64,000 nt of DNA from Bilabrum cf. latius (lineage: Eukaryota): positions 1,116,001-1,180,000 of the forward strand of contig OZ237748.1 of the NCBI GenBank assembly GCA_965178125.1. The letters are read 5' to 3'. The notes beneath the pieces are model-generated. The model was not told the DNA's origin. It saw nothing but the letters and a program-made list of their open reading frames with translations, and searched no databases. This document shows positions 1-24,179 of this stretch, one piece after another. The translations under genes were made by a program, and so were the position numbers. The stretch's first letter is position 1. Each line of letters opens with the position of its first letter.

Positions 1-11
1 GCGCTGCTTGC

Positions 12-3000
12 GTGCATTCGGCGGCGTCCTTGCCGTCCTGGTTGCCGCAGGGCAGCAGCTCGTGGTCGTGTCCAGCATCACTAGTGCCCGATTGGAAAAC
101 CCTGGGGCAGGTTCGCAATGATTTTCTTCGTTTGGTTAGTGCTTCCGGGGCATCATCTGCATCGGCGTCCCGACTAGAGGTGGTGTTTGCCGCTGTGTGT
201 GTGATACCACGCGGAAGTTCAGCCTTTGAGATGCTCTCCTCCCATGCTTGGCGCCATACAGGCGAACGCTGTGACGTTGAGATTCGTGACCTTGTTGGGA
301 ATGAGATTCCTTCGTGCTCTTCTGGCGACTGCATGCGTCTCCTACAATTGCTGCATCCGTGGGCCACTGAGGCATGCAGATCAGGCGAACCTGGCCTCGT
401 GCGCGGACTGCTACAGGGAGTCCAGGCTGACATGCAGGCGCCGTCCCGTCGAGCAGCACTGTCCCGTCACTTCGACCCCCGCGGGGGCAGTGGAGGCCGG
501 GGCAGTGGAGGCGGGGGCAGTGGAGGCTCCAGGCGCAGTGGGGGCGACAGCGACCAGCCCAGTACCGATCGTGGCGGAGGTCGACACCGTCGAGGCCGTG
601 GACGTGGCGGTGCAGGCCAGCAAGGTGGCCAGCACCAGCGTGCGGACCGGCAGGACGGGGGTTCCACCAGGAAGTCCAAGGAGCCTTCACCTGACCCTCC
701 CCCACGAGGTACGTCACGTCAGAGCCAGCCCAGCACTCCAACACCAACACTGCCGCAGGGGCGTACGCAGACTACCACCACATCGGACGCGTGTGCTGCT
801 TCCACACCACCTGTCACGTCAACGCCCGCGCTTCACCCAGTCCTGGTGGCCCTAGCGCGCCCTAAGCGACCGCAGCGGCCGCCCACGGCGTCATCCACGA
901 GGCTGCCAGGTAGGACGGACATCTCTCCAGCATTCGTTGACTGGGCATATCCAGCTCCGGATCCAAGCCATGAGTGGGCAGGGACGACAGCACCCTCCGT
1001 AGAGGACTTCATCCAGCGAAAGGACGATCACCAGCGTACCAGAGACTGTCCCGGCGAATTCGTGGAGGCTCCAGCTGCGACGTGGGACCGTGAGCGGATC
1101 CACCTGAAGGTTCACGAAGACCCGCTGGCATTCACGCCACGCAAGTACTTCGACAAGGTGCCTCGCTAGACTGCAACACTGCGGACTCGGCGGGAGGTTC
1201 TGTTTGGCGGCCGCACACCGAGGAAGGCCCCGTCCCTTGCCGAGTTCAAAGCCCTCCCACGAGTCGAGCGTGTACTGGCAGCACTGAACTATGGTTGCCC
1301 CCTAGCCATCGTGGACGAGGTGCCCAAAGAGCACGATCTAGACTACAAGGACCGTAAGCTGTCTCCGGAAGAAAAGTGGGAGATCGCCTGCGAGATCGGG
1401 CGCTCCATGCGGGCTGGCGAGCGTGACTTCGTGTCACCCAAAGATTTCGACACAGCCCGGGCCCGGCCGCTGGTGATCCCCAAGAAGGACTCGACAAAGC
1501 TACGGTTCCTTCAGGACTCCTCACTCAAGGTGAACGGCCAGCGTACCGGTCTGAACAAGGCCATCGACTACAGTGCAGCCACGCCTGTGCAGCAGACGAG
1601 CAGCATGGACGTGCTGCGCTCGGCAGCCGCAGCAGTTCGATCCTGCCCCAAGCGTGCCAGCGGATACGTCGTCGACATTTCCTCGTACTTTCGGGTCCTG
1701 CCGGTGGCAGTGGAGGATCTCCGATACAACCTGATCAAGCTGCCCGACGGGCGCATCGTGCAAGACTTCAGGCTCTCTATGGGCAGCTCATCATCTCCCG
1801 CGTTCGCAACTACGATCAGTTCGGCTTTGGCCCAAGCCCTCGAGGAGCAGTCCATTGGCAGGGCCATGCGACCCGGACGGAGACACAAGCAGAAGCAACG
1901 ACGCCGGCAGCAGCAGCACGCCAACGCCCAATCCAGCACGACGGACCAGGCGCCCCAGGCGAACTCGTCAGCAACGTCCACCCCGCCTGCCGCTAGCACG
2001 ACAACGGGACAGGTCAAGACGGCCCAAGACTAGTCCCGCCATTGGTAGGTCGAAAATGAGGTGTTTGTAGATGACTTTGCCTGCCTCGGCGGAGATCACG
2101 AAGTCGATGCATGGGCAATTCGAGCCATGGGGCAGCTGGACTCCACAAACTTCCCCGTCAGCATCTCGAAAGCATTGAAGCAAGGGGCCCCAGCCCCGGT
2201 GTTCGAGTACTTGGGCCTCACCTACGACTTGATCAAACACGAGGTGCGGTGCCCTAAGGACAAGGCCACCGACGTCCTGCGCAGACTGCACGAGGCACTC
2301 ACGACGAAGGGGATGCTGCTGTCTAGCTTTGAGACCTTGGTCGGCAAGTTGTCCTTCCTGTCGGGCGCACTTTATGGTATGCGCGGTGCTCTACGTCCCC
2401 TGTATGACGCCAAGGGCTGGGCCCTTCACAAGTAGGCCAGCCGGTCACGACCAGGTGAGGTGTGGGTCCCCACCTCCTTCGTGTCCAAGGGTGGCTTCAC
2501 AGTTGGGGAAATCCTCGAGGGATTCCAGGTGGCTATCCAGCGCAAAGGCGGGCGCAGTTTTCCGATGCGGGGCACCATTGACTGTCCCATCATTCGCACT
2601 GATGCGTCGGTGACAGGCTACGGCGCCGAGCTACTTCTCCACGACACGGACGGAAACATCACATCGCACACCGGCATCCACGGCACTTGGCCGCATCGCC
2701 TAGAGGCGAAGGATGTAGCGGCGGCAGAACTTGCAACATGTTTGTTGGCACTGGCGCATTGGCGACAGCACCTGCGTGGACGTGTGGTGCGTTTGTGGTG
2801 TGATAATGATGCTTCCGTGTAGCTGATACGCTACGGCAGACCCAAGAGCCACATCATGGCAGCCTTACTTCGCCCTATCTTCGTACTGCAGACAACGCAA
2901 GATGTGCAGATTCACGTGAAACACATTCCTGGCGAGGACAACATCGTTGCGGACGCTTTGAGCCGCGGCTCACAGGAGGCATACACGCACCTGGACGCGG

Positions 3001-3953
3001 TGTATCAGGTCGACTGTCCCACGCCGATCTGGAGGACCTTGTACAAGCACGACCATTTCACGCTGGTGGCCACTCTGGACTCAGTGGGTTGCGCACGGCG
3101 TGGGGGCACTTCGACAACTTCCTCACGTGGTACGACATCGACCGCAGCTTCATGGACGGGCATCTTCCAGCAGCTCGCAGACTCTTCGCGTTCAGGCTCA
3201 ATGCAGCGCTCTCGAGATTTGCAGTCTTCTTAGGGGAATGTTCGCCTCTCAGTGGCGGCACCATCGCTACATACACCAGAAATGCCTAGCGAGTCGTCAT
3301 CGAGTCCACAGGAGCGTGCGGCGTCCCACGGTCAAGCTAGCTCGACAGCATCCTCCGGTACTACCACAAAGCATCGCCATCGGCGCACCCGTTGCGTCGA
3401 TCTTCAGCCCCACTCCGCGCAATCCGACGGTGTTTCTCGACAGCCGGTTGCAGCACAACAGAGTAGGCTGCTCGGGCAGCTGTCTGTCTCTGCTTCTGTG
3501 GGGGCCTCCGGCTGGGAGAGCTCGTCGGTGCGTCCAGACGACAAGCCGGCCTCCAATGGCAGCAAGTGCAGTTCATCACGCGAGACGGACGCATCCATGG
3601 TGTTGCCATCCGCCTGGGCCTCCACAAAGCCGACGGTCCAGCCAAGTTCTCCATCCAAGCCGCAGAGCCCATCGCAGTCCATTGCAGAGCCGGACGATGG
3701 GCAGTCACAGGCAGCAGGTTCTGCGGCGTGCGAGCCTTCGTGGCGTGGGCAGCAGCGAGCCACGCCCCAACTGCAGGCGCAGACGAAGACTACGCCCGGT
3801 AGCTGGCGCTCAGCTGCCCCACGTCAGGGCCAGTCTTCGTGGCGAACACGAAGCCGATCGTCAAGGCGCAGGTCGTACGGGCGCTCCGCAGCTTCTGCTC
3901 ACGAGAAGTTGCAGGAGCGGTGCACGGACATTCCATCCGCATCGCGGCAGTGA
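12..3953 (+). CDS. Gag-like/RT/RNase H polyprotein (5'-partial; continuous if TAG=Gln)
   Basis: Track ORFs 12, 1311, 2061, 2460, 2856 and 3252 share one frame, separated only by TAG (1167, 2031, 2046, 2433, 2820, 3231). RT motifs VVDISSYF, LSMGSSSSP, FVDD, YLG; RNase H motifs TDAS, AELA, CDN, NIVADALSR. First non-TAG stop is TGA at 3951-3953. Confidence 0.85.
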
Positions 3954-4147
3954 TGTGTTTGGACCGTGCTGGGGTCGCCTTCGAGGTCATTAGGCGATTC
4001 GGCAGATGGAAGTCGGCATCTGCATGCGAGGTGTACTTGCGGGGCGTCAGGGAAGGCTTGCCTCCTCTGGAGCTCGGCGGCAGGAGCCTCGATTTGAACA
4101 GGCCAGTGTGGGTGCTGGCCAGCGCGCTGCGGCTGAACTTGGAGTGA
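3089..4147 (+). CDS. Tyrosine recombinase of the Ngaro element (start unresolved; four in-frame TAG)
   Basis: Reading through TAG gives GLRLGEL, HKAD, GHSIR, GRWKS and VYLR, the R-K-H-R-W-Y catalytic set of DIRS/Ngaro YRs. Ends at TGA. Confidence 0.87.
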
Positions 4148-4187
4148 GCCACACAGCCGCAGCGTACAAGACATGGCGGTAAGATTT

Positions 4188-4649
4188 GGCGGAGTAGTGC
4201 ACGTGCTCTTCCCAGCCCCGGTCAGTCCGGTCAAGGGTAGCGCACAGGCACAGCTTTGTCAGGTCTTGCCATGTCTGATTGTTAACGAGACTAGGTTGCG
4301 CGTACACTCTGGCATCATGATCCTAACGCCGGATGGGGTTCGGTGTTGATGCCAGAGTGGGAGCGCGTGAACGTCTCGTTGGGTTCCGATGGCGGTTGCG
4401 ACCGGGAAGGTGCGACCAAGCCAACGGATTGCTTGCGATGACGCGCATACCCTCTCTGTGTTCAGGAGAGGGGCGGAGATTGGGTAATTTTTGCCCACCC
4501 TCCCAACCCCCTCCTCCTCGGCGGAGTAGTGCACGTGCTCTTCCCAGCCCCGGTCAGTCCGGTCAAGGGTAGCGCACAGGCACAGCTTTGTCAGGTCTTG
4601 CCATGTCTGATTGTTAACGAGACTAGGTTGCGCGTACACTCTGGCATCA
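4188..4649 (+). repeat. Ngaro split direct repeats: B1 (4188-4317), A2 (4318-4493), C-rich spacer, B2 (4520-4649)
   Basis: B1 and B2 are identical 130-bp blocks. A2 matches the 5' terminus of copy 2 (15718-15893). Confidence 0.93.
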
Positions 4650-6210
4650 TATTAAATATAATATTGTTATGTCCACAAATTTTCTAGCTGTAATTTTGAT
4701 ACAATAAATTAATATAAGAAAAATTGATCTGTATGAAATTCTTGTATTAAAGTAAAAATGTAGAAATTATGAAATCGTATACTGTTTACTTTTGGATATA
4801 ATTTGTGGACATAACATTTTTTAATTAATTAAAATACTATTAAATATAATATTGTTATGTCCACAAATTTTCTAATTATGTTCTTAATATTTTCTAGGCT
4901 TTTTATTTCAATACATATGGCTGAAAAGAAAAAATTTATTAAAAATCAGAATAAAATCGCACGTTACTTTAAGACTCGGAATCATAATCTACACGTCAAG
5001 GGCTTTCGAATGATATAATATTGTATAGGGTTAATAATGACTGGAAGGGTCATCCTGTTTTCTGGAAGTGGCATCCTGCTCTCTGGAAGTGGCATCCTGT
5101 TTTCTGGAATGGCGTTCCTGTCCTCCGAATGTGTCATCCAAACATTTTAAATATAACAAATTATATATTTTCTGAATCCTCATGAGCTAGGGAACAAGAA
5201 AATAATAGTTATATGTTACGTGCATTTTTCTGTAATTTTTTAATAATCATTAAATCGAATGTCTTCCTGTTTCCCTATTGTTGCAATTTATTCCTTAGAT
5301 TTAAATAGGTCATAAATAATGGTTAATAATATTTGACGCTCACCCTACGATTTACAATAAAAAAGTGAAACAGATAAGGATGACAGATTTGATGACAGAA
5401 TTGAAAATTTAGGTAGAATAAATAATTTAATATAATATTAACTTTTATTTTTTTTCTTTCAATGTTGAAAATATAGTGTTTTGTCACACATTTGTCATCC
5501 TTATCTGTTTCACTTTTTTTTGTTACATTTAATAGTGGTCATCGTGTTGACATATTTGTGCTGGGAATTTTTACGTGACAGATTTGATGACGGAATTGAA
5601 ATTTTAAGGTAAATAAACAATTTAATATAATATTAACTTTTATTTTTTTTCTTTCAATGTTGCAAATATAGTGTTTTGTCACACATTTGTCATCCTTGTC
5701 TGTTTCACTTTTTTATACATTATAAAGTGTTCTTCTAGTTACTATATTTATGTTTACATATTTGTTTGAATATTGTGGATAAATGTGTGTTGCGTAAGTT
5801 ATTCAGCTGAGCAATTTGGACACAGCGGTTTGGGACGGGGCGAAGGAGCATACTCTGTACTATGATAAATCTATTTTTTGTTTTACTTTATCGTATTCTG
5901 ATAAGTTATTGATTCGAGGACTTAATTCAAAAAGTACTTGAAAATTCAGAATAAAATCGCACGTTACTTTAAGACTCGGAATCATAATCTACACGTCAAG
6001 GGCTTTCGAATGATATGATATTGTATAGGGTTTATGAGCTTGTCCTAGGCTTTGAGAGCCTTGTCAGGCCCGACACGAACTTTGTCAGCCCCGACACCGA
6101 CTTTGTCAGCCCCGACACCGACTTTGTCTTCCCCGACAAGATCCAAAAATCGACGGACATATGACAAATTATATATTTTCTGAATGCACATGAGCTAGGA
6201 AACACGATGG
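4650..6210. repeat. Non-coding viral region with direct repeats, inverted repeats and 21-bp arrays
   Basis: Duplicated module ~4945-5198 / ~5945-6205, each enclosing a different 21-bp array. Inverted repeat ~5359-5385 / ~5492-5518. Duplication ~5381-5518 / ~5577-5713. Confidence 0.8.
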
Positions 6211-6252
6211 TATGACTTATAGTTGCGTGTCGTTTTAAAATAAGATTTTATT

Positions 6253-7620
6253 TTAAGATAGGATATCGAGGAGTACATCAACAAAATCACTATTATGTCC
6301 TCCTCCTTTGTTCCTTAGCCTTGCAGATCTCCTTATTCCTTCACTTGGTATGGTTTGAAGGTTTCTAGTTTGTCTTTTAGTTTTTTTTGGTTCAGGTTGT
6401 TTGCGTCCCTTGTCCCAGTAGAAACTATCACCATCCCATATCACGTTATTTTGGCGTTCAAATCGATCAACAACTTTTGGTATGTCCTCAATTAATTTCT
6501 CACGTGGTTCAAAGGTGTCATCCTTGGGTCCATAATGTTTCCAGCGGACAATATAGCCTTGCACACCCTTCTGGATGCTAGGACGGACCAGTTTCGATAC
6601 CTCATAGGTCTCTGGATCGTCTGTTTCATTCTCCACACCATCGATGGGTAATAAATCATGATTATAATATATTTCTTTCTGTCCTTCCAATTTATACTGA
6701 GGAGCACGTAGGTTGTCTTTTGGTTTCATTACTTGACTAATAGTATAAATATTTTTGGTCCAGTACGTGCCATCCTGAGATCTTTCCTCTAGTTTTACCC
6801 TTACCTTCTGTCCTTTTTTTAAAATACGATCATCAGTTTTTTTGGATGCTTTCATAATATTCTTAGTAATTTCTGGTTGCTCTTTATCCTTTGAATGAAT
6901 ATCGTCAGGTGATGCCTTAATTGTCCTTTGATATGTTGAATTATAATAGTCCACTAATTGTTGTAAATATTCATGCCAATTCTTGTCACCCGATGCCTTG
7001 ACGTTCATTCTTATTAATTTTTTAATTGATTGATTGAATCTCTCAATTCCACCATTACTTTGGGGGCGACTAGGTAGGGAGAAAACCTGCTTGATACCTT
7101 CAGATTTTAAATAGTCTTTGAATTTTTTATTTACAAACTCTGATCCATTATCTGATCTAATTGAGCTGGGTATTTTTCTCATTCCCTTAACAATTTTTTT
7201 CATGGCATCCAATACTGTTTTCTCCTGCTTATTTTCTAATGCTTCAGCCCATGCATATTTCGAGTATAAATCTATGGCTGTTAAAATGTAGCGATACCCA
7301 CCAAAAGCATAGCGTTGCATATCAACTAAATCAATAGCTACCTGAGATAATGTATGCCTCATAATTGTTGGCCTTACTAAAGTTTTCTGTTTTTCTGGTC
7401 TAGTAAACATTTGATTTACTTCTTGTTTTTTTAACCATTGCATAACGTGTCTACGTGATACATTAATACCCTTGGATTTCGCAAGTCTCCAGAGTCGGTC
7501 TCTACCCCACATTTGCTTTTGATTGTAATAAAGATCATGTAATGCTTCCTCAGCCTGGGTACTTATAAATGTTCTTCTTTTATCGGCTTCTTTTTTATCT
7601 GACTTTTTTTCATCTGTCAT
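6253..7620 (-). CDS. Retroviral-type (rve) DDE integrase with C-terminal chromodomain
   Basis: IDLVDM, SDNGSEF and SNGGIERFN form the D-D-E core. YEVSKL..YIVRWKHYGPKDDTFEP is a chromodomain. This architecture is typical of Polinton/mavirus integrases. Confidence 0.92.
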   Translation of the reverse strand: MTDEKKSDKKEADKRRTFISTQAEEALHDLYYNQKQMWGRDRLWRLAKSKGINVSRRHVMQWLKKQEVNQMFTRPEKQKTLVRPTIMRHTLSQVAIDLVDMQRYAFGGYRYILTAIDLYSKYAWAEALENKQEKTVLDAMKKIVKGMRKIPSSIRSDNGSEFVNKKFKDYLKSEGIKQVFSLPSRPQSNGGIERFNQSIKKLIRMNVKASGDKNWHEYLQQLVDYYNSTYQRTIKASPDDIHSKDKEQPEITKNIMKASKKTDDRILKKGQKVRVKLEERSQDGTYWTKNIYTISQVMKPKDNLRAPQYKLEGQKEIYYNHDLLPIDGVENETDDPETYEVSKLVRPSIQKGVQGYIVRWKHYGPKDDTFEPREKLIEDIPKVVDRFERQNNVIWDGDSFYWDKGRKQPEPKKTKRQTRNLQTIPSEGIRRSARLRNKGGGHNSDFVDVLLDILS

Positions 7621-7656
7621 TTATAATTTAGATAAAGATAATTATCCTTACCAAAA

Positions 7657-8334
7657 TTAAACATTAGAATTCTTTTCTTGCTCCTTCTTCAATCTACGTA
7701 GTTTTCTACGTCTCTCATTTATCCTTTGTCGATTTTCTCTCAAGTACTTCCTTTTCTTTACTAGTATTTCTTCCTTATTTTTTTCATAGTATGTTTTTTT
7801 ATTTTCAAGTATATTTTCTTTATTCTTTTCATAATACCCTTTTTTTGTTTCCTTTATTCTTTCCTGATTGTCTTTCTGGTACTGTTTTTTCTTTTCAAGA
7901 ATTTTGTCCCTGTTTGCTTTGTAGTACGCCTTAATTTTGTCTACATTTTCTGCATAATACTCTTTACTTTTTTCTCTCAGCTTTTCCTTATTGGCTATTC
8001 TATACTGTTCACTGTACTCCTTAAAACTTCTTCCTGCAATGTTTTTGTTCACGCACGGATTGTTCCTTATAAAATCTCCTTCGATCTTGTTTAATTCTTC
8101 CCTGTCATTACACGGACATTTTTGTACCAACTCTATTTCAACATTTCCGAGCTTGAATATTTCGAATGCTGTGATATAATTGGCTTTTCCATTATTGTAC
8201 AACTTATACTTAGTTGTGTGACTCCCCTTTCGTTTATACAAAGGTTGACAAGTAGAACCATAATAAACCATTTTTGGATCATCACAATTTCTTGAGTACA
8301 ACTTATAAATTTTTGCGTTTTGATAATTAACCAT
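7657..8334 (-). CDS. GIY-YIG-like endonuclease with Lys-rich helical tail
   Basis: KIYKL..YYGST..L..R...H and a later conserved E (E..FI), followed by YYEKNKE-type repeats. Confidence 0.75.
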   Translation of the reverse strand: MVNYQNAKIYKLYSRNCDDPKMVYYGSTCQPLYKRKGSHTTKYKLYNNGKANYITAFEIFKLGNVEIELVQKCPCNDREELNKIEGDFIRNNPCVNKNIAGRSFKEYSEQYRIANKEKLREKSKEYYAENVDKIKAYYKANRDKILEKKKQYQKDNQERIKETKKGYYEKNKENILENKKTYYEKNKEEILVKKRKYLRENRQRINERRRKLRRLKKEQEKNSNV

Positions 8335-8374
8335 CTTTTAATATCGTTAATTATCTTTTTTTCTTTAAATGTAA

Positions 8375-9343
8375 TTACTCTTGTAAAGCGTCGGTCATCA
8401 ATTTGTTTAATAGCTTCAACTTTTCATCCTTTGTCATGTCTTGCATTAAACATTTCATCTTATCTTCAACATTTCCGTGGACCATCTTTGAGTATTTGCT
8501 ATAAATTCTATTTTCGGTTTGCATTGAATGACCCAATACGTGGCAGTCACGCATTCTTTCCTTCATGGAAACCTTTGGATTATCGATTCTTTCACTTACA
8601 TACTTATTCCTTATATCGTTGGGTGAAATACCAAAATATTTCTTGGTACATCTTTGGATTGTTTTTCTATCTGTTTCTTTATCTGGATTTTTTAATGATG
8701 AAAACATGTATTTTGGAGTGTAGATACTCAAAATTGAATTCACCAAATCGATGTATTCATCAGATAATTCTATTTCTTTTCCCTTATTATGTTTATCCGT
8801 TTTATGGTTCACAATAATCAATTTCTTGTCCTCAATAATTAATCGATTTAATTTATGGTATTTTTTAGAATCCTTTAATACAACAATGGATGATGTGAAC
8901 TCGGATGGTCTCAATGGACCGATCAAATTAAAACTAGCTAGAATCCATTTATTTACAATATCATTTACATCATTGCTATCCTTGAGTTTATTATATGCTT
9001 CACCAACTTTACAGAATTTAAAGTCTTTCATTTTGGAATCATCCAATTTATTCTCATAGACTTTTCTATTTTTTTCTGTCATTTTTACCTCTTTTCTTAA
9101 ATCAATATACACTGAATCCACATGAAGTTTCAATGCATCCAAGCATTTAACAAATCCTCTTAGTGTTGGACTTTGACTTCCTACAGAAATGGATTTAATA
9201 AATTTCATGACTTTCTTTGGATCATTTATATCATCCACATTTTCATAAACCCTTTTAAATCTATTTATGTATGCAGTTTTTGAGTTGCTATTTTCATTTT
9301 TAAATGCTTGTTCAAGCTTTTTAATGTAATTTTGTAATTTCAT
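8375..9343 (-). CDS. Viral tyrosine recombinase
   Basis: Motifs PLRPSE, NHKT, DIRNKY, LGHS and a downstream Tyr occur in YR order. Confidence 0.75.
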   Translation of the reverse strand: MKLQNYIKKLEQAFKNENSNSKTAYINRFKRVYENVDDINDPKKVMKFIKSISVGSQSPTLRGFVKCLDALKLHVDSVYIDLRKEVKMTEKNRKVYENKLDDSKMKDFKFCKVGEAYNKLKDSNDVNDIVNKWILASFNLIGPLRPSEFTSSIVVLKDSKKYHKLNRLIIEDKKLIIVNHKTDKHNKGKEIELSDEYIDLVNSILSIYTPKYMFSSLKNPDKETDRKTIQRCTKKYFGISPNDIRNKYVSERIDNPKVSMKERMRDCHVLGHSMQTENRIYSKYSKMVHGNVEDKMKCLMQDMTKDEKLKLLNKLMTDALQE

Positions 9344-9392
9344 CTTATATATTTATACAAGATAAAATATTCTTTAGGTGCGTTTTTCATCG

Positions 9393-10001
9393 TTATTCTT
9401 CAACCTGATTTTGCTTCTTTTTTTTCACATAGTATTCTTTGGCTTTTTGTAAGCGTAAATCTCTATTTTTCTCATAATTTGATTTAAAATATTGTTTTAT
9501 TTTCTCTTTATTTTCTTCTCTATATTTTTTTGCATATTCCTTTTTCTTCTCTTTCTGCTTTTTATAACTTTCATAATTTGATTGATAGTACTGTCTAATT
9601 TTCTCTTTGTTTGCTTTATAATACTGTCTACTTTTCTCTTTAAGTTTGTCCTTGTTAGATTCTCGATATGTTTTCATTTGGTCTTCTCGAGACCTTCCAG
9701 CTATATATTTGTTTACACATGCATTGTTTTTAATAAACTCTCCTTCTATTTTACTTAGCTCTTCTCTATCATTGCATGGGCATTTCTTGACTAATTCAAT
9801 TTCAATATCTCCAAGCTCGATTATCTTAAATGATGTTACGTAATGTCCTTTTCCTCCTGTAGTATAATTTTTGTAGTATGACATATGTCCACCCTTACGC
9901 TTATATAATGGTTGACATGTAGAGCCGAAATAAACCATAACTGGATCATCGCAATTTTTGGAATATAGTTTGTAAATTTTAGCGTTCTGATAATTAACCA
10001 T
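9393..10001 (-). CDS. GIY-YIG-like endonuclease, paralog of 7657-8334
   Basis: Near-identical N-terminus MVNYQNAKIYKLYS..YFGSTCQPLYKRK. Confidence 0.75.
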   Translation of the reverse strand: MVNYQNAKIYKLYSKNCDDPVMVYFGSTCQPLYKRKGGHMSYYKNYTTGGKGHYVTSFKIIELGDIEIELVKKCPCNDREELSKIEGEFIKNNACVNKYIAGRSREDQMKTYRESNKDKLKEKSRQYYKANKEKIRQYYQSNYESYKKQKEKKKEYAKKYREENKEKIKQYFKSNYEKNRDLRLQKAKEYYVKKKKQNQVEE

Positions 10002-10108
10002 CGTTTTATATCTTATAATAGTTTTTTTTCTTTATGTATATAATATAATTATTTTAGTGCGTTTGAAAGATCGCAAAGTATCCATTTTTTATCTCTTCAT
10101 AAATTATT

Positions 10109-10393
10109 ATGGATTACCAAAAAATGCTTGGTGCTAAAATATTAAAGAAACGAAAATTAAATAAAAAATTAGGTTATTTTCTCGATCAATTGGATAAACT
10201 AAGTGATTTTTTACGAGGAAATGATATAAGGTTGACAATGCATAAATTCAAAACAATAGGTAACCACAGCAAACTACGAGACGATATAAGGTATACAAAA
10301 ACGCAATGTGTTACAGAATTAAACAAATTAGAATCGAAATACTTAGAAAAATATGGCTGTGTTCCTGTATTTAAAAGTGAAGCACTAAATTAA
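10109..10393 (+). CDS. Hypothetical viral protein
   Basis: ATG-TAA ORF in compact AT-rich context; stop overlaps that of the convergent gene. Confidence 0.5.
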   Translation: MDYQKMLGAKILKKRKLNKKLGYFLDQLDKLSDFLRGNDIRLTMHKFKTIGNHSKLRDDIRYTKTQCVTELNKLESKYLEKYGCVPVFKSEALN

Positions 10394-10764
10394 ATTATTT
10401 TTTTTTCATTCTCATCCTTTTTACTGTGACTAGCAATGGGACTATTAAGATCCACTTGCTTGGATTGTTTTTTCTTTCTTTGATAATACTCTCGTTGCTT
10501 GGCCCTGATTTTTTCTTTATTATTTTGATAATAATTTTTCATACATGAGCGATGCTTGGCTTTCCCCTTCTCTGTATTTAGATAATTATAAATATATTTT
10601 TTATTTCTTTCATAATTACCTGTGTATTTGGATTTTAAGGTATCGTATTTTTCTTTTAACTTATCGTAATCCTGTTTTAGCTTTTTTATACCTTGCTTTA
10701 CATGTTTGCTGATTTCTCCTTCTGACTTAAGAAGGTCATTTAATTTTTTTTCGGTATTCTCCAT
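10390..10764 (-). CDS. Hypothetical viral protein (coiled-coil, basic)
   Basis: ATG-TAA ORF with YYQNNKEKI-type tail and the shared upstream TTTTCTA motif. Confidence 0.65.
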   Translation of the reverse strand: MENTEKKLNDLLKSEGEISKHVKQGIKKLKQDYDKLKEKYDTLKSKYTGNYERNKKYIYNYLNTEKGKAKHRSCMKNYYQNNKEKIRAKQREYYQRKKKQSKQVDLNSPIASHSKKDENEKKII

Positions 10765-10805
10765 TTATATAATCTATAAATAGAAAATAATTTTAAGTAC
10801 GTTTA

Positions 10806-11919: not shown

Positions 11920-11958
11920 TTATTATATACTATAAATAGAAAATAATTTTAAATATGT

Positions 11959-12234
11959 TTAATCTAAATAATTTTTGTAAATTTCATATTCGACCCTGCA
12001 CGATCTATATTCGGAACAGTTCATGTTACTATTTATCGCAGTATCTAAATTGAACTCCTCTATTTTAAGTTCATCATCTGTATGTTCATTAAAATCATCG
12101 AATATTTCTTTTTTTACATATTCCAATGCTTTTTTTCGAGTAGAAAAGCATTCACAAATGTGACGATCTTGAATATTTTTATAGTCATCATCATAAAAAG
12201 TAATTTTGGCTAACCAAACAATTTTTTTTACCAT
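11959..12234 (-). CDS. Hypothetical viral protein
   Basis: ATG-TAA ORF with upstream TTTTCTA motif. Confidence 0.6.
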   Translation of the reverse strand: MVKKIVWLAKITFYDDDYKNIQDRHICECFSTRKKALEYVKKEIFDDFNEHTDDELKIEEFNLDTAINSNMNCSEYRSCRVEYEIYKNYLD

Positions 12235-12444
12235 TTATATACTTTAAATAGAAAATAATTTTTAAGCTTATTAATATTTTTTCTCGATTCGTTGGATTCT
12301 TGAGTATGTAGTTTTTAGATGTTTTTTAAAGCCGAGTGCGTATTTATATTTATAGAATACTTGCCTTTTGTACTCATTATCGAGTCCTTTGTAAATAACA
12401 ACGTATTTATATTTATTCATTATATATAGTGTTCGGAAATTAAT

Positions 12445-12708
12445 TTACTCTTGGTGCGTTTGCTTGGACTTTTGTTTTCGTTTTTTATACTGCTCACGAT
12501 ACAGTTTGCGTCTCTCTTCTCTGTGTTTCAAATAGTATTTTCTTTGAGCTAGTCTATTTTGTTCTCGCAATCTGTCTTTCTTTTCCTGTTTAATTTTCTG
12601 GATTTCAATGTCCTTCAATTGTTGCTCTAAATTCTTGTATAAATTATAAGTACCTTCGATTGCTTTCATCTCCTCGATGATTTTTTTGGTCATTTCTTCA
12701 GTGTTCAT
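12445..12708 (-). CDS. Hypothetical basic coiled-coil viral protein
   Basis: ATG-TAA ORF with upstream TTTTCTA motif. Confidence 0.6.
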   Translation of the reverse strand: MNTEEMTKKIIEEMKAIEGTYNLYKNLEQQLKDIEIQKIKQEKKDRLREQNRLAQRKYYLKHREERRKLYREQYKKRKQKSKQTHQE

Positions 12709-12802
12709 ATAATACTATATTAGAAAAAAAACTTTATATAATATAGAATTTTTTTCATATAAGAAAATGGTTTAAAAATATTTTCTTATATTAAAGTATA
12801 AA

Positions 12803-15800
12803 ATGAAAATCGAAGAATTTATTTCGAAATACAATCTTCCATATATGATGCCAGAGTGTACGCGCAACCTAGTCTCGTTAACAATCTCCGCCCCTCTCCT
12901 GAACACAGAGAGGGTATGCGCGTCATCGCAAGCAATCCGTTGGCTTGGTCGCACCTTCCCGGTCGCAACCGCCATCGGAACCCAACGAGACGTTCACGCG
13001 CTCCCACTCTGGCATCAACACCGAACCCCATCCGGCGTTAGGATCAGGAAAGTCACATTGATCAAAAAGAATGGTGAAAAAGTACCTATTGGTGATAGGA
13101 ACAACATGACACTTAATGAGATCAGACAAAATACTGGTTTCTGGAATCCTTGCTTTGAGGGATTCATTAATTTTATTAAATCAAGGGAAGATGTAAAAAA
13201 AAGAATAATCAAGAAATTAAAAATTGACTCCATTGATGAGATCAAGAAAGAGGATGTCATTGAAGTGTATTCTATTTATGTTCAATATACTGATTATACT
13301 ATTATTGATATTGATGATGTAAGATTAAAGGAAGACATTAAAATTGTACCAATAGAAATTCGCCGTAAATTAAAAGATAATTTTTATGACCTCTCAACTG
13401 GTAAAAAATTGCCTCATTACTGGGTGAAGGTCACAAATAAACCAAAGGACTTCTTAGAAAAATACGATCAAATTAAAATATTCAAAGACTTCGATGGGGA
13501 TCTGCTACATGAAAAAAAATGTATTTGGGTCAGGCGTGGAGCTAACATCAAAGGGAATCAATTTAATACTATTGATTGGTCAGTTCTTGAACCACATTGT
13601 CAAATGAAAGATGAGGTCACAGTAAAACCACAACAAAAACGAGGAAAAGGAAGACCTAAAAAAGAAAGAGGGAAATATGAAGAAAATGATGATGTTATAC
13701 CAGAGAAGATTAAGGTTTCGGATTCAACTGATCCACTTGTTTTTTACCTTTCATGCATTCCTAATAATCCTACTAAGTCATTTGATACTTGGTATAAAAT
13801 TGGAGCTATTCTGTATAATGAAGGTGGAACTATTGAACAATGGATAGACTGGACAAACCAGAGTCCAGATTACGGATCAGAAACCAAGGATGATTTAATA
13901 ACAACATGGGAAAGTTTTGGTAAAAGAAGTAAAGGTAGAAAAGCCAATTTAGGGTCATTAATCAAACTAGCTAAAAAATATGTTCCAGATTGTGTCGAAA
14001 TATTTCAGGAAAAGCACATTGATTTTGGAGATTTAAACATAGAGGAGTTTCCAAATGTTGAAATCTATAATAATAAGTTCGTCAAAAAATCTCCTTTGCA
14101 TGAATATGACTACTGGATTGAAAGAAGTCGTATGGGTTCTGGTAAAACTTTCGGCATCAAACAATACCTAAAAGCACATCCAAACAAAAGAGTTCTATTT
14201 TATTCTCCAAGAATTTTGTTCAGCAATAATCTAATTGGTCAATTGAAGGATCTCAAATTTGAGAATTATAAGTCTTGCATGAATGCTGTAGAATCCAAAA
14301 GGTTAATTATGAGTGTTGAAAGTTTGCATAAAATTATGGATGCAAAATATGACCTGCTTATAATAGATGAAGTTGAAACGATTTTAAATGTTTTTAATTC
14401 TCCAACAAATAAAGAGATTAAAAAGAATGTCAATATTTTTGAGAGGCTTGTGAAGTCTACTAAAAAGATCGCATTTATGGATGCATTCCTGTCCAATAAA
14501 ACCCTGCAATTTATTAAAAACATGAAATTAAATGAGTCCAAAACAATAATTAGAATTAACAATAATAAGCCAGTAGCAAGAAAAGCATTGGGAATCCAAG
14601 ATAAAGATATTTTTACAAATAGAGTATTCGATAAATTAAAGCAAAATAAAAAAGTTGTTGTTTTTTCATTTACAAAAAGTTATGCTGACACTTTAGTTGC
14701 TGAGGTACAGGGCTATAATAGAGGAACAGAAAATAAAATAAAATTCAAATACTATTACGGAAATATGCCTGATTCAGTGTACGACGAACGCGTTCCAAAT
14801 TCATACGATTGCTCAAAAGATGATTTATTAAATGTTAAAGAATCATGGTCAGGTATCGATTTATTAATCTATACTCCTACCATTACAGTGGGGGTTAATT
14901 TTGATCTTCCTAATGTGTTTGATTCTTTATTTGTATTCACATCAAATAAATCATGTTGCGTACGAGATGGTATGCAATCGACTATGAGAGTCAGACACCT
15001 CAAGAGCAATAAAATGTATTTTTACTATGATCCAAAACAAAGATTCGGACATGAGGATAAAATCAGATCGAAGGAAATGATTCGTGATGATTTCCACAAA
15101 AGAGGAATGAAAGCATTAGAAATACTTGAAGAGCTAAAAAGAAAAAATAATGTGGATGATATTTCTTTAGAGGAAATTCCACAATGGCTTGAAGATGTGC
15201 TAGTGGATGCAGAATATGAACATATTCAATCCCGAGTATTTTTTATGCCAATCTTTAGAAAATACCTTTCAATGCTAAACTATAAAATTGTAAATTTATG
15301 CTGTGAAAATATTGTGGAAGCAGATCCTTATGGCAAATTCAAAACATCTTATATGTGGGATATGGAAGACAAAGTGCAACTTAAATTTATTCAGAATGCA
15401 ATTTTAAACGAAATGGAGGAGGAATGTAAAGAAATAAATAAATGGCAAATGGAAAGACGTTCTGTTTGGGAAAAGCAAAGAGAAGATTATATGGCAAATA
15501 GAATTCAAGAAATGAAAGAGGAATTACAGAAAAATAAAGAAAGAATTGCAAAAGAAAATTCTTTACTATCTAAAACAGAAGAAGAAAGAAATGACAGTGT
15601 TGATAAAATTACTGAGTATTTCGATTCAATTGCTGAAATCGATGAGGACACTTTTGAAGAGCTAGAGAGACTAAAAAAAGCTGGAGACTTAAATGTGGAA
15701 GATAATAAACTTTATCATGATCCTAACGCCGGATGGGGTTCGGTGTTGATGCCAGAGTGGGAGCGCGTGAACGTCTCGTTGGGTTCCGATGGCGGTTGCG

Positions 15801-18800
15801 ACCGGGAAGGTGCGACCAAGCCAACGGATTGCTTGCGATGACGCGCATACCCTCTCTGTGTTCAGGAGAGGGGCGGAGATTGGGTAATTTTTGAAGAAAG
15901 TTCCTGCTCCGTTCATTTAACATGAACAGCGCCGGTAGCCATCGGATCGACCCGGCGGCGCGCGGGGCAGCAGGCAGCGCCAGGGTGATCGCCGCAGCTG
16001 CAGTGTTCGCTCGCGCGGTAGGCCAACCTGCGGTCACGTTGGCCGATTTAGCTACTCGATATGGTATGAATGATGCTGTGTTCTCGGATTTCATTGCTCG
16101 TCTCAACGTGCAGCGCGACACCATGGCACCTCGCGATCCCGATCTTCAACGTGCACACGATGCGGGGTTCCTGTGCTACTTGCTCGACAGGTACTCATCA
16201 AAGCAGTCCTTCACGGCATCACGGTCCATTAATGCTGTCAAGAGCACCGCTCTCGCCAAGTTCGTGTCAAATGGGACGCTAACGACTCTCGGTGCACGGC
16301 TGCTTCTGCCGGCGTCGCCGAGCTCTCCTCGACGGCAACAGCCTGAGCGACTCGCAGGACAAGTACATCTTCATCCTGTTCAGCAATCTCCAGAGGCTCC
16401 TTCTTCAATCGAGTCTCCATGGTCCCTGAGTTCACTACCGACGGGCCGGCGGACCGCTCCTCTTCGCGGACAGCATCGGCCACCAGGACGCCTCGACTTC
16501 GGCGCCGCCATCCATGCTTCACCTGGACGCGACCGAGCGGCGTAGAGTGCCACCAGGACAAGCCGCGGAATTTCGCCCTTGCGGGCGCGGCCAGGCTCTT
16601 CGACGACGCGGCAGGCCCCGCTCGCGCGCGGCGGGCGGGCCCACCTGCACGAGTCCCCGAACCGAGGGCCCCCGGGGACAGCAGCAGATACCCAGCGCAG
16701 CGCCCAGCCCAACTTCTCAACGTCTTCACCCCCGCGGCACCAACCTCCACCTGCCTCGGGCATGATCCCCGGTAGGCCAGGCACTCGGGACTTCGGCGAT
16801 CCGACAGTGCTCGCGGAGGCGCTCAGCAGTGCAGCATCACGGTCAACGGGCCCGGCAGGCCCCCAGCTTCTTCTTCCTCGTGTGTCTCCGGCTTACGACT
16901 CCCCCGGCGTGACTCCGGGCACCAGCCGCTAGCTCGACGCGGTCTGGGGCCGCCTTCCTGGGGATCTCCAACGGGCAGTGTTGCACTCCACGACGCTGCG
17001 GGGAACGGCCGACCCAGCGACAATTCTGCATCTACGCCTGTTTGCGCTGTGGCACAGCATTCCGACTCTGCGCCAGGAAGAGCTGCTGTCGCACCTCTCC
17101 GCCCACGTGGAATTGCAATGGTACTTCTCGCACCGACTAGCAGCCTCGATGCACTCATCCCCGCCACCGGTCGACGCTACACCCGCTCATCAGCCACCCC
17201 GTGAACCTCCTGTGTCATCTTCTGCCTCACCGCAGCCTGCGTCTTCAATTGACCCAGTTTCACCGGGCGCAGGCACGGCAGTGGACTCCGCGGTCGTTCG
17301 CTCGCAACCAGTGGAGATTTTGTAGCGTGAGGCCTCTGCACCTTCAATCGCTGCAATTCGAATGCAGAATTGGTTTTCTGATGATTTCTTGGCAACGTTG
17401 ACCTCGATCTTTCGCCAATCCGCGTTCATGCCGCGGTTTTGCTAGGCTGACGCGCTTCATTTGGACGCTAGCGGCCGCGATTTCGCTGCAGAACTGGCCC
17501 GTGCCCTGTTTGGTCAGGCCGTGACGAGAGCCAAGATTGAATCGGCTATTTTCTCGTTCACGAGCCGGCTTCATGCAGCTCTGCCGATGAGCAATGCCAG
17601 TTTTGGGAAGTTTGATGCGTCCAACTCGGAGTCGTCTGCTGCAGGCGGACGAGAAAAGTAGGTGCCATCTAGCGAGTTACTATGCACTATTTACTCGGCT
17701 ATTTCCTTTGCTTTAGGCTGTGTGCTCGTGCGCGCTGCTTGCGTGCATTCGCGTCCTTGCCGTCCTGGTTGCCGCAGGGCAGCAGCTCGTGGTCGTGTCC
17801 AGCATCACTAGTGCCCGATTGGAAAACCCTGGGGCAGGTTCGCAATGATTTTCTTCGTTTGGTTAGTGCTTCCGGGGCATCATCTGCATCGGCGTCCCGA
17901 CTAGAGGTGGTGTTTGCCGCTGTGTGTGTGATACCACGCGGAAGTTCAGCCTTTGAGATGCTCTCCTCCCATGCTTGGCGCCATACAGGCGAACGCTGTG
18001 ACGTTGAGATTCGTGACCTTGTTGGGAATGAGATTCCTTCGTGCTCTTCTGGCGACTGCATGCGTCTCCTACAATTGCTGCATCCGTGGGCCACTGAGGC
18101 ATGCAGATCAGGCGAACCTGGCCTCGTGCGCGGACTGCTACAGGGAGTCCAGGCTGACATGCAGGCGCCGTCCCGTCGAGCAGCACTGTCCCGTCACTTC
18201 GACCCCCGCGGGGGCAGTGGAGGCCGGGGCAGTGGAGGCGGGGGCAGTGGAGGCTCCAGGCGCAGCGGGGGTGACAGCGACCAGCCCAGTGCCGATCGTG
18301 GCGGAGGTCGACACCGTCGAGGCCGTGGACGTGGCGGTGCAGGCCAGCAAGGTGGCCAGCACCAGCGTGCGGACCGGCAGGACGGGGGTTCCACCAGGAA
18401 GTCCAAGGAGCCTTCACCTGACCCCCCCCCCACGAGGTACGTCACGTCAGAGCCAGCCCAGCACTCCAACACCAACACTGCCGCAGGGGCGTACGCAGAC
18501 TACCACCACATCGGACGCGTGTGCTGCTTCCACACCACCTGTCACGTCAACGCCCGCGCTTCACCCAGTCCTGGTGGCCCTAGCGCGCCCTAAGCGACCG
18601 CAGCGGCCGCCCACGGCGTCATCCACGAGGCTGCCAGGTAGGACGGACATCTCTCCAGCATTCGTTGACTGGGCATATCCAGCTCCGGATCCAAGCCATG
18701 AGTGGGCAGGGACGACAGCACCCTCCGTAGAGGACTTCATCCAGCGAAAGGACGATCACCAGCGTACCAGAGACTGTCCCGGCGAATTCGTGGAGGCTCC

Positions 18801-21800
18801 AGCTGCGACGTGGGACCGTGAGCGGATCCACCTGAAGGTTCACGAAGACCCGCTGGCATTCACGCCACGCAAGTACTTCGACAAGGTGCCTCGCTAGACT
18901 GCAACACTGCGGACTCGGCGGGAGGTTCTGTTTGGCGGCCGCACACCGAGGAAGGCCCCGTCCCTTGCCGAGTTCAAAGCCCTCCCACGAGTCGAGCGTG
19001 TACTGGCAGCACTGAACTATGGTGGCCCCCTAGCCATCGTGGACGAGGTGCCCAAAGAGCACGATCTAGACTACAAGGACCGTAAGCTGTCTCCGGAAGA
19101 AAAGTGGGAGATCGCCTGCGAGATCGGGCGCTCCATGCGGGCTGGCGAGCGTGACTTCGTGTCACCCAAAGATTTCGACACAGCCCGGGCCCGGCCGCTG
19201 GTGATCCCCAAGAAGGACTCGACAAAGCTACGGTTCCTTCAGGACTCCTCACTCAAGGTGAACGGCCAGCGTACCGGTCTGAACAAGGCCATCGACTACA
19301 GTGCAGCCACGCCTGTGCAGCAGACGAGCAGCATGGACGTGCTGCGCTCGGCAGCCGCAGCAGTTCGATCCTGCCCCAAGCGTGCCAGCGGATACGTCGT
19401 CGACATTTCCTCGTACTTTCGGGTCCTGCCGGTGGCAGTGGAGGATCTCCAATACAACCTGATCAAGCTGCCCGACGGGCGCATCGTGCAAGACTTCAGG
19501 CTCTCTATGGGCAGCTCATCATCTCCCGCGTTCGCAACTACGATCAGTTCGGCTTTGGCCCAAGCCCTCGAGGAGCAGTCCATTGGCAGGGCCATGCGAC
19601 CCGGACGGAGACACAAGCAGAAGCAACGACGCCGGCAGCAGCAGCACGCCAACGCCCAATCCAGCACGACGGACCAGGCGCCCCAGGCGAACTCGTCAGC
19701 AACGTCCACCCCGCCTGCCGCTAGCACGACAACGGGACAGGTCAAGACGGCCCAAGACTAGTCCCGCCATTGGTAGGTCGAAAATGAGGTGTTTGTAGAT
19801 GACTTTGCCTGCCTCGGCGGAGATCACGAAGTCGATGCATGGGCAATTCGAGCCATGGGGCAGCTGGACTCCACAAACTTCCCCGTCAGCATCTCGAAAG
19901 CATTGAAGCAAGGGGCCCCAGCCCCGGTGTTCGAGTACTTGGGCCTCACCTACGACTTGATCAAACACGAGGTGCGGTGCCCTAAGGACAAGGCCACCGA
20001 CGTCCTGCGCAGACTGCACGAGGCACTCACGACGAAGGGGATGCTGCTGTCTAGCTTTGAGACCTTGGTCGGCAAGTTGTCCTTCCTGTCGGGCGCACTT
20101 TATGGTATGCGCGGTGCTCTACGTCCCCTGTATGACGCCAAGGGCTGGGCCCTTCACAAGTAGGCCAGCCGGTCACGACCAGGTGAGGTGTGGGTCCCCA
20201 CCTCCTTCGTGTCCAAGGGTGGCTTCACAGTTGGGGAAATCCTCGAGGGATTCCAGGTGGCTATCCAGCGCAAAGGCGGGCGCAGTTTTCCGATGCGGGG
20301 CACCATTGACTGTCCCATCATTCGCACTGATGCGTCGGTGACAGGCTACGGCGCCGAGCTACTTCTCCACGACACGGACGGAAACATCACATCGCACACC
20401 GGCATCCACGGCACTTGGCCGCATCGCCTAGAGGCGAAGGATGTAGCGGCGGCAGAACTTGCAACATGTTTGTTGGCACTGGCGCATTGGCGACAGCACC
20501 TGCGTGGACGTGTGGTGCGTTTGTGGTGTGATAATGATGCTTCCGTGTAGCTGATACGCTACGGCAGACCCAAGAGCCACATCATGGCAGCCTTACTTCG
20601 CCCTATCTTCGTACTGCAGACAACGCAAGATGTGCAGATTCACGTGAAACACATTCCTGGCGAGGACAACATCGTTGCGGACGCTTTGAGCCGCGGCTCA
20701 CAGGAGGCATACACGCACCTGGACGCGGTGTATCAGGTCGACTGTCCCACGCCGATCTGGAGGACCTTGTACAAGCACGACCATTTCACGCTGGTGGCCA
20801 CTCTGGACTCAGTGGGTTGCGCACGGCGTGGGGGCACTTCGACAACTTCCTCACGTGGTACGACATCGACCGCAGCTTCATGGACGGGCATCTTCCAGCA
20901 GCTCGCAGACTCTTCGCGTTCAGGCTCAATGCAGCGCTCTCGAGATTTGCAGTCTTCTTAGGGGAATGTTCGCCTCTCAGTGGCGGCACCATCGCTACAT
21001 ACACCAGAAATGCCTAGCGAGTCGTCATCGAGTCCACAGGAGCGTGCGGCGTCCCACGGTCAAGCTAGCTCGACAGCATCCTCCGGTACTACCACAAAGC
21101 ATCGCCATCGGCGCACCCGTTGCGTCGATCTTCAGCCCCACTCCGCGCAATCCGACGGTGTTTCTCGACAGCCGGTTGCAGCACAACAGAGTAGGCTGCT
21201 CGGGCAGCTGTCTGTCTCTGCTTCTGTGGGGGCCTCCGGCTGGGAGAGCTCGTCGGTGCGTCCAGACGACAAGCCGGCCTCCAATGGCAGCAAGTGCAGT
21301 TCATCACGCGAGACGGACGCATCCATGGTGTTGCCATCCGCCTGGGCCTCCACAAAGCCGACGGTCCAGCCAAGTTCTCCATCCAAGCCGCAGAGCCCAT
21401 CGCAGTCCATTGCAGAGCCGGACGATGGGCAGTCACAGGCAGCAGGTTCTGCGGCGTGCGAGCCTTCGTGGCGTGGGCAGCAGCGAGCCACGCCCCAACT
21501 GCAGGCGCAGACGAAGACTACGCCCGGTAGCTGGCGCTCAGCTGCCCCACGTCAGGGCCAGTCTTCGTGGCGAACACGAAGCCGATCGTCAAGGCGCAGG
21601 TCGTACGGGCGCTCCGCAGCTTCTGCTCACGAGAAGTTGCAGGAGCGGTGCACGGACATTCCATCCGCATCGCGGCAGTGATGTGTTTGGACCGTGCTGG
21701 GGTCGCCTTCGAGGTCATTAGGCGATTCGGCAGATGGAAGTCGGCATCTGCATGCGAGGTGTACTTGCGGGGCGTCAGGGAAGGCTTGCCTCCTCTGGAG

Positions 21801-22456
21801 CTCGGCGGCAGGAGCCTCGATTTGAACAGGCCAGTGTGGGTGCTGGCCAGCGCGCTGCGGCTGAACTTGGAGTGAGCCACACAGCCGCAGCGTACAAGAC
21901 ATGGCGGTAAGATTTGGCGGAGTAGTGCACGTGCTCTTCCCAGCCCCGGTCAGTCCGGTCAAGGGTAGCGCACAGGCACAGCTTTGTCAGGTCTTGCCAT
22001 GTCTGATTGTTAACGAGACTAGGTTGCGCGTACACTCTGGCATCATGATCCTAACGCCGGATGGGGTTCGGTGTTGATGCCAGAGTGGGAGCGCGTGAAC
22101 GTCTCGTTGGGTTCCGATGGCGGTTGCGACCGGGAAGGTGCGACCAAGCCAACGGATTGCTTGCGATGACGCGCATACCCTCTCTGTGTTCAGGAGAGGG
22201 GCGGAGATTGGGTAATTTTTGCCCACCCTCCCAACCCCCTCCTCCTCGGCGGAGTAGTGCACGTGCTCTTCCCAGCCCCGGTCAGTCCGGTCAAGGGTAG
22301 CGCACAGGCACAGCTTTGTCAGGTCTTGCCATGTCTGATTGTTAACGAGACTAGGTTGCGCGTACACTCTGGCATCATGAAAAAGATATCAAAAGAGCGG
22401 AGGGCAAAGCCCGAGCATCTTGGGAACTTAATTTATTCTTTCTAAGTCTCTTATAA
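12803..22456 (+). CDS. Viral primase-helicase (AEP-like + PriCT-2 + UL9/origin-binding-type SF2 helicase), split by Ngaro copy 2: 12803-15717 joined to 22378-22456
   Basis: IDIDD and STGKKLPHYW (AEP-like); W.KIG.IL......W..W..QSPDY (PriCT-2); MGSGKT, IIDEVE, MDA, TPTITVGVNFD, MQSTMRVR (SF2). Removing the retroelement gives ..KLYHEKDIKRAEG.. in frame to TAA at 22454-22456. Confidence 0.82.
12846..13046 (-). mobile_element. 201-bp miniature Ngaro derivative (A start fused to B end)
   Basis: Reverse complement reads TGATCCTAAC...GGCGGAGATTG/TTAACGAGAC...GGCATCA, carrying both exact element termini joined at a GATTG microhomology. Confidence 0.93.
15922..21681 (+). CDS. Gag-like/RT/RNase H polyprotein of copy 2 (TAG read-through; frameshifted near 17750 and 18425)
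   Basis: Track ORFs 15922, 16579, 16978 and 17461 are one frame separated only by TAG. Relative to copy 1 there is a 4-bp deletion near 17750 and +1 in a C run near 18425. RT and RNase H are as in copy 1. Confidence 0.75.
20817..21875 (+). CDS. Tyrosine recombinase of copy 2
   Basis: Same sequence and same four TAG positions as 3089-4147. Confidence 0.87.

Positions 22457-24129: not shown

Positions 24130-24131
<2 letters not shown>

Positions 24132-24177: not shown

Positions 24178-24179
<2 letters not shown>

Follow-up and report, generated by a model that had tools for sequence, protein, structure and literature searches.

A young Ngaro-type retrotransposon family that probably uses TAG as a glutamine codon, inserted in a low-GC virus-like element of Bilabrum cf. 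latius

The window analyzed here is a 64,000-nt stretch of the genome of Bilabrum cf. latius (positions 1,116,001 to 1,180,000 of the forward strand of contig OZ237748.1, assembly GCA_965178125.1; all positions below are those of the window), in which three kinds of DNA can be told apart by GC content. Two GC-rich blocks (60-63% GC; 1-4652 and 15714-22380) are copies of one element, which we assign to the Ngaro-type retrotransposons on the evidence given below, with a low-GC block (about 29-39% GC) between the copies and again from 22378 to about 23190, and host-like DNA (52-73% GC) downstream of about 23190. Copy 2 (15714..22380; forward strand, as are all features of both copies) is full length at about 6.66 kb, with the layout A1-[open reading frames, ORFs]-B1A2B2. 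It comprises repeat A1 (15714..15893; 180 nt), ORF1 (15922..17750; 609 codons with 5 TAG), an Arg/Gly-rich gag-like segment (17751..18422) that is out of frame as assembled, a reverse transcriptase (RT) with an FVDD motif followed by RNase H (18423..20830; 5 TAG), a tyrosine recombinase (YR; 20817..21875; 4 TAG) and the 3' repeats B1 (21916-22048), A2 (22042-22221) and B2 (22248-22380), the last preceded by a 26-nt spacer. Copy 1 (1..4652) has lost its 5' part to the start of the window and retains a frame for the gag-like segment and RT/RNase H (3..3953), in which the gag-like segment (24-693) stays in frame, a YR frame (3089..4147) and the 3' repeats B1 (4188-4320), A2 (4314-4493) and B2 (4520-4652). 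ORF1 matched no Pfam family and shows about 30% identity with the N-terminal region of the polyprotein of a metagenome relative, L001, which is described below.

The split direct repeats are complete in copy 2, and copy 1 has the same 3' arrangement. Throughout the window, repeat A (180 nt) occurs three times at 100% identity and repeat B (133 nt) four times at 98-100% identity; the initial annotation of this DNA had called the terminal repeats intact. Within copy 2, A1 equals A2 (180/180) and B1 equals B2 (133/133). An alignment of the two copies (4,651 columns) shows 99.76% identity, 6 mismatches and 2 gap openings. The few differences stated earlier include these gaps, one of 4 nt and one of 1 nt, which break the ORF1-gag-pol frame of copy 2. 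When copy 2 was cut out in silico, the frame of the helicase gene into which it is inserted was rejoined with no duplicated bases and continued for some 25 codons before reaching a stop. The heptanucleotide ATCATGA, common to the end of B and the start of A, is also common to the target and the B/A junction of copy 2, and we regard it from sequence as a candidate crossover core of the recombinase. It is found at the 5' junction (15711-15720), at the internal B1/A2 junction (22042-22048) and at the 3' junction (22374-22380) of copy 2; the 3' junction of copy 1 and a solo repeat elsewhere in the window have only ATCAT in common.

If TAG is read as glutamine (Gln, Q), frame 3..3953 of copy 1 extends uninterrupted over 1,316 codons to its terminal TGA; it includes exactly 6 TAG but neither a TAA nor another TGA, and 4 TAG lie in the YR frame 3089..4147. 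The corresponding frames of copy 2 (17953..21681 and 20817..21875) contain 6 and 4 TAG at the same relative positions. In copy 2, the 5' frame (15922..17931) adds 7 TAG, with 5 in the true ORF1 before 17750 and 2 in a frame-shifted tail. This recount agrees with the initial annotation, which had counted six TAGs in gag-pol and four in YR of copy 1 without internal TAA or TGA, had found all of them kept in copy 2 and had assigned five more to the extra 5' part of ORF1. Taken together, the non-overlapping coding parts (ORF1, gag-like, RT/RNase H and YR) hold 14 TAG and 0 TAA/TGA in 1,986 codons. Under the standard code every frame fragments, the longest pieces being no more than 388 aa, and the element would be taken for a pseudogene, as had been anticipated. 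In the pol region, the coding frame contains no TAA and one TGA (the terminator) vs. 4 TAA and 13 TGA in one of the other frames and 0 and 12 in the remaining one, whereas the TAG counts are 6, 7 and 7, respectively. Because TAA and TGA are depleted from the coding frame while TAG is equally frequent in all three, TAA and TGA are selected against in frame, unlike TAG. Both the pol and the YR frames end in TGA. The pol frame remains open to 21681, its tail overlapping the YR frame; since both substitutions found there leave the YR protein unchanged and alter the pol translation, the tail of the pol frame, with its sixth TAG, is probably not coding.

In-frame TAGs are also present in the host-like part of the window. 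A bulb-lectin-like gene (58980..60743, reverse strand) has 5 in-frame TAG and ends in TAA, and a frame encoding a repeat/transmembrane protein (50158..55254, reverse strand; 1,698 codons) has 3 in-frame TAG and ends in TGA; TAG makes up 4.5% and 20% of the Gln-type codons in two host genes vs. 15% in the element. TAG 209 of the lectin gene is the first residue of a QGDGNAVL stretch and corresponds to the Gln of the QxDxNxVxY sugar-binding motif. At the equivalent of this position, paralogous repeats of the same protein have Q from ordinary codons, and when the second domain of the lectin is aligned with mannose-binding lectins of solved structure, the same motif has Q. Among five host frames, four terminate in TGA and one in TAA, and none of the ORFs examined in the window, whether of the element, the host or the low-GC block, ends in TAG (a small sample). 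Ten further host-side ORFs gave no Pfam match, and there was no conserved housekeeping gene among them. These features suggest a nuclear code like that of NCBI table 15, in which TAG alone is reassigned to Gln.

Relatives of the element provide a second view of the same codons. An exhaustive protein search yielded 2,667 proteins at E<=1e-3, 7 of them at E<=1e-30, and the matches include pieces, translated by the standard code, of nearly identical copies that lie on metagenome contigs of 18,878, 15,936 and 2,613 bases. The fragments of the 18,878-base copy, which shows a few residue differences, end exactly at the window TAG sites 603, 737 and 866, and P0162 from the 2,613-base copy (about 96% identical) has a standard Gln codon at pol TAG 737 and then stops at 866. 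In addition, Q is found at pol TAG 315 in P0007, P0012, P0016 and L001, at pol TAG 737 in P0007, at YR TAG 238 in P0173 (83% identical) and P0172 (62%), and at YR TAG 84, where it is conserved, in P0172, P0174 and P0175/L001; YR TAG 126 aligns with H or A. In the closest relatives (P0007 and P0172), Q thus occupies 4 of 7 aligned TAG sites, which is roughly as expected for a Gln codon because an identity of 55-62% predicts such a share. The metagenome contig L001 (6,002 bases) is related to the window element at 36-45% identity; a single ORF of 1,841 codons in it contains 7 TAG but no stop of another kind, and its YR, with 1 TAG, overlaps this long ORF. All parts are in one frame in L001, and in P0007 a single ORF of 724 aa covers both the gag-like segment and RT. 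Scans of IMG/VR with pol and with the helicase found no relatives, and a metagenome scan seeded by a piece of the window pol alone found no match. The metagenome contig L002, of a related element, is circularly permuted with a 146-nt terminal overlap (1-146 and 6499-6644; period 6,498 nt), as expected of a repeat-bounded element assembly, of tandem copies or of a circle, and its YR is followed by a 300-nt repeat spaced at 384 nt (4283-4966).

Parts of the element are contained in 13 sequencing runs from 7 studies, 9 of which have at least half of the sampled words and none of which is on record as RNA. Contigs from runs X1, X2, X3 and X7, one per study (4 studies), were compared with copy 2, and their loose ends place the true 5' end of copy 2 at 15718. 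At the TAG sites, where the initial annotation reasoned that random decay would leave varied stops or sense codons, the other copies keep TAG or have a Gln codon, with no mixed stop types, and none of the 40 listed substitutions (40 of 56 rows) falls in a TAG codon. Purifying selection downstream of the TAGs, on which the same argument turned, is indicated by the 37 listed coding substitutions, 20 of which are synonymous and 17 not, with about 27% synonymous expected (binomial P=4.5e-4; with an assumed 35%, P=0.014). Past the first TAG of ORF1, 8 of the listed substitutions are synonymous vs. 6 non-synonymous. In three runs there is an in-frame 3-nt deletion at 15962. Each run has 2-5 contigs with unrelated sequence directly before the start of A, which shows that the element, or its solo repeats, inserted at several places. 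We consider the family young because A1 equals A2 and B1 equals B2 in copy 2 and because several sequences lie ahead of the A start in each run. Contig joints such as 15906 to 22019/22351, with sides of 27-29 nt and from single contigs, are read neither as circles nor as solo forms.

As for the family to which the element belongs, a profile built from the window sequence and 13 relatives matches the Ty3 RT/RNase H chain (E=9.2e-21), and RVT_1 is matched by 8 of the 14 aligned members (best 4.4e-11); the window RT itself has a Q/S/T-rich insert of about 60 residues ahead of the FVDD motif. Downstream of the RT, the RNase H matches RVT_3 with 26.3 bits (cut-off 21.6), together with a weak match to RT_RNaseH. 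The YR relatives P0174 and P0176 carry PF00589, and H281 and R284 (H-x-x-R) as well as Y316 are invariant in 7 sequences. A fold search with an AlphaFold model of the YR (pLDDT, the model's own confidence score, 71) gave Cre, XerA, Flp, Tn1549 Int and lambda Int as top matches, with a best E of 6.8e-4. Ngaro differs from DIRS1/PAT-like elements in having no methyltransferase-like domain; no Pfam family was matched in the stretch from RNase H to YR, which speaks weakly for the absence of such a domain here. The putative Ngaro membership rests on this profile and fold evidence and on the repeats. In addition, the insertion of copy 2 without target-site duplication fits recombinase-mediated insertion of a presumed circle. 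No ATG is present at the conserved N-terminus of the YR, where Leu stands in place of the initiator Met of relatives, and translation of the YR may begin at a non-AUG codon, by a frameshift from pol or in another way. In the upstream direction its frame contains no stop as far as at least 20601, and it encodes an N-terminal stretch that is conserved in relatives (20601-20880).

We think it very probable that these copies represent a young Ngaro-type family (order DIRS) written in a host code in which TAG encodes Gln and TAA and TGA are stops, and that they landed in a low-GC virophage/polinton-like element. Judged from sequence, the in-frame TAGs are best read as Gln of a variant nuclear code of the host with TAA and TGA terminating; TAG is assigned to Gln because of the motif Gln of the lectin, the swaps between TAG and Gln codons in relatives, the single long ORF of L001 and the excess of synonymous substitutions. 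The proposal of the initial annotation that this is a recently active element adapted to a recoded host is supported by the same swaps and synonymous excess and by in-frame TAGs of host genes, including that at a motif Gln. The element would encode one long polyprotein (ORF1, gag-like, RT and RNase H) and an overlapping YR. Other DIRS and Ngaro elements serve as the model for its presumed replication: reverse transcription of the RNA, formation of a closed circle with a B/A junction, which the split repeats would make possible, and insertion of this circle by the YR without target-site duplication. Two copies and a solo A-B repeat have landed in the low-GC integrated element.

A number of observations weigh against this interpretation. 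Of the HMM (hidden Markov model) searches suggested at the outset, the window RT alone on RVT_1 (E=0.07) and the YR on Phage_integrase (E=7.4e-5; 23 bits vs. a cut-off of 27.1) stayed below the Pfam cut-offs, leaving the RVT_3 match above its cut-off and the profile and fold results as support, and a YR profile had no match among PDB sequences. With respect to the code, no tRNA gene was found in the window by ARAGORN and no RNA family by Rfam; in four relatives F, L or W stands opposite YR TAG 67, pol TAG 866 faces A in P0010, P0017 and L001, and in the comparison of L001 with the window element Q faces 3 of 21 aligned TAG sites, from which it follows that most TAGs are at variable positions. 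As regards other copies, the contigs collapse copies and drop rare variants, the substitution figures come from the 40 rows given above and run X1 may be the window's own source. Finally, the 671 nt between the indels of copy 2, encoding the gag-like segment, are out of frame, and a TGA is reached at 17929-17931.

This last point is the basis for the alternative that survives best, namely that the family functions in a TAG=Gln code while both copies in the window are inert relics of active masters located elsewhere, a scenario that we hold possible but on the whole doubtful. Compared with copy 1, copy 2 has 4 nt absent after 17750 and an extra C at 18422, unlike the contigs of all 4 runs, in which the 4 nt are present (GGCG or GACG) and the extra C is absent; since copy 1, these contigs, P0007 and L001 all keep it, a continuous ORF1-gag-pol frame is the norm of the family. 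In addition, copy 1 is clipped by the window start, and its 5' part may be damaged. However, the indels together amount to -3, so that the reading frame is regained after the second one, which makes assembly errors possible as well, the repeats within copy 2 are identical, and copy 2 shares all TAG sites and motifs with copy 1. We surmise that copy 2 is probably either defective or mis-assembled at 17750 and 18422. The family itself looks like a living rather than a decayed one; the visible part of copy 1 has its continuous frame, and the frame of copy 2 is broken as assembled.

The remaining alternatives concern the meaning of TAG. That TAG is a sense codon but does not (or not only) specify Gln, standing for another residue or being stop or sense according to context, would account for the non-Gln residues opposite YR TAG 67 and pol TAG 866 and for the few Q in the L001 comparison; we nevertheless judge it improbable, as the Gln of the host lectin motif is a TAG, near-identical relatives swap TAG and a Gln codon, every close relative keeps Q at pol 315 and YR 84, and no examined ORF of the window terminates in TAG. 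Less credible still, indeed highly improbable, is the notion of dead pseudogenes in a standard-code host, with the TAGs as accumulated nonsense mutations. The standard code does fragment every frame, and CAG-to-TAG transitions would likewise place TAG at Gln positions, but fresh nonsense mutations are predicted from codon content to be TAG in about 47-49% of cases, and the probability that all 14 would be TAG, if new nonsense mutations, is about 3e-5; moreover, the synonymous excess persists downstream of the TAGs, the independent relative L001 has the same TAG-only pattern, host genes also have in-frame TAG and the terminal repeats are identical. Programmed UAG read-through by the element in a standard-code host, for which read-through of UAG as Gln at a retroviral gag-pol junction is a precedent, is the least probable of the alternatives, because with 14 sites across all ORFs the product of read-through efficiencies is negligible and unrelated host genes share in-frame TAG.

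The low-GC carrier of this family (4653..15713, resuming at 22378 and ending near 23190) holds both Ngaro copies and the solo A-B repeat. Besides small ORFs, it encodes an integrase with rve and chromodomain (6253-7620, reverse strand; rve 1.7e-17, Chromo 2.4e-8), whose look-alike clusters in the Atlas are mostly Preplasmiviricota, and a PriCT_2/Herpes_ori_bp primase-helicase (12803-15841, forward strand; Herpes_ori_bp 2.9e-30, PriCT_2 3.6e-7), which has metagenome relatives of about 1,020-1,030 aa and is the gene interrupted by copy 2. Among 10 carrier ORFs scanned in the window, there was no capsid or morphogenesis gene (major or minor capsid protein, packaging ATPase or protease), three low-GC ORFs had no Pfam match, and no terminal inverted repeats of the carrier were found within the window; for lack of capsid genes and terminal inverted repeats there, we call the carrier only virophage/polinton-like, and the rest of it may lie to the left of the window. 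Its 10 ORFs have 0 in-frame TAG vs. 78 CAA and 28 CAG and end in TAA (9) or TGA (1). Because TAG is neither a sense codon nor a terminator in these ORFs, the carrier is readable under both codes.

In the solo A-B repeat (12843..13049, reverse strand; 207 nt, i.e., 69 codons), the first 168 nt of A are fused to the final 42-44 nt of B, with GATTG as microhomology at the joint; the remainder of A, the spacer and the greater part of B have been lost. It lies in frame, 14 codons into the primase-helicase gene, and the ORF 12803-15841 passes through it without a stop. Elsewhere in the carrier, at about 11170-11850, there is a GC-rich (53-74%), strongly purine-skewed island of about 700 nt. It bears no relation to the repeats of Ngaro and could represent a separate insertion or a fragment that was captured. 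Two further carrier ORFs on the reverse strand (7657-8334 and 9393-10001; 225 and 202 aa) are paralogous, with a near-identical N-terminal half, lysine-rich tails and no Pfam match; their N-terminus may resemble the start of GIY-YIG-type nucleases. In the host part, 23965-26361 and 35551-37416 appear to be a segmental duplication, with two pairs of nearly identical ORF translations and no Pfam family.

Transposons of ciliates (Tec, TBE1 and Tetrahymena non-LTR [non-long-terminal-repeat] elements) have reassigned stops of their hosts inside ORFs and look broken under the standard code. These belong to other element classes and host lineages than the Ngaro described here, in which TAG only is reassigned and the genome is GC-rich. 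The nested arrangement has a counterpart in Cafeteria burkhardae, where Ngaro types 1-4 are integrated in endogenous mavirus-like elements, where the layout A1-[ORFs]-B1A2B2 is given for Ngaro elements and where automatic gene callers fragment the Ngaros, according to the main text of Hackl et al. 2021 (PMC8547959). As described there, the Cafeteria Ngaros and the window element are alike in being GC-rich, about 6-7 kb long and bounded by split direct repeats, in the order Gag-like, RT/RNase H, YR, in being nested in a low-GC integrated virus-like element and in the presence of solo AB repeats in such elements. The likeness to the mavirus-like hosts of the Cafeteria Ngaros is one of description and not of sequence, and the carrier shows no capsid genes within the window. 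In addition, that main text has no mention of 'genetic code' and none of in-frame TAG in Ngaros, whereas here TAG is apparently a sense codon in both element and host. A preprint on Halocafeteria gives that species as being without Ngaro.

A parallel for the code comes from Streblomastix strix, in which endogenous viral elements use the TAA/TAG=Gln code of the host, with the recoded insertions taken as a sign of long association with that host, in the account of Bellas et al. 2023 (PMC10120064). On that account, the Streblomastix elements and the window Ngaro have in common that they are integrated and written in the reassigned-stop code of the host; they differ in that the former are insertions of DNA viruses, recognized by capsid genes, with TAA and TAG both reassigned, and the latter is a retrotransposon with TAG alone, while the virus-like carrier of the window, unlike the Streblomastix viral elements, uses no TAG. 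Judged by title or abstract, we found no literature linking Ngaro to a variant genetic code, and found none on an endogenous virophage with UAG as glutamine. Both Ngaros nested in endogenous virophages and integrated viral elements in the reassigned code of the host are thus already known from these two papers.

For the host, the window would serve as a compact internal proof of a TAG=Gln code, and annotation pipelines that assume the standard code would label the element family and many host genes as pseudogenes. For the family, an arrangement described so far in Cafeteria, with a Ngaro inside a virophage-like element, would be extended to a recoded host. The code may also act as a barrier to the horizontal spread of Ngaro, as the initial annotation had supposed. 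We further postulate, as a tentative idea to which we give rather little credence, that the nested parasites are split by the code, such that the Ngaro, with TAG=Gln at host-like frequency, would be locked to a clade of TAG=Gln protists, whereas the TAG-free carrier could move between recoded and standard hosts. If this is true, the carrier could take along a passenger that works in only one code. Independently of this idea, the pair is a natural setting in which to ask whether a changed code hinders horizontal transfer of a retrotransposon while leaving that of its DNA-virus-like carrier unaffected.

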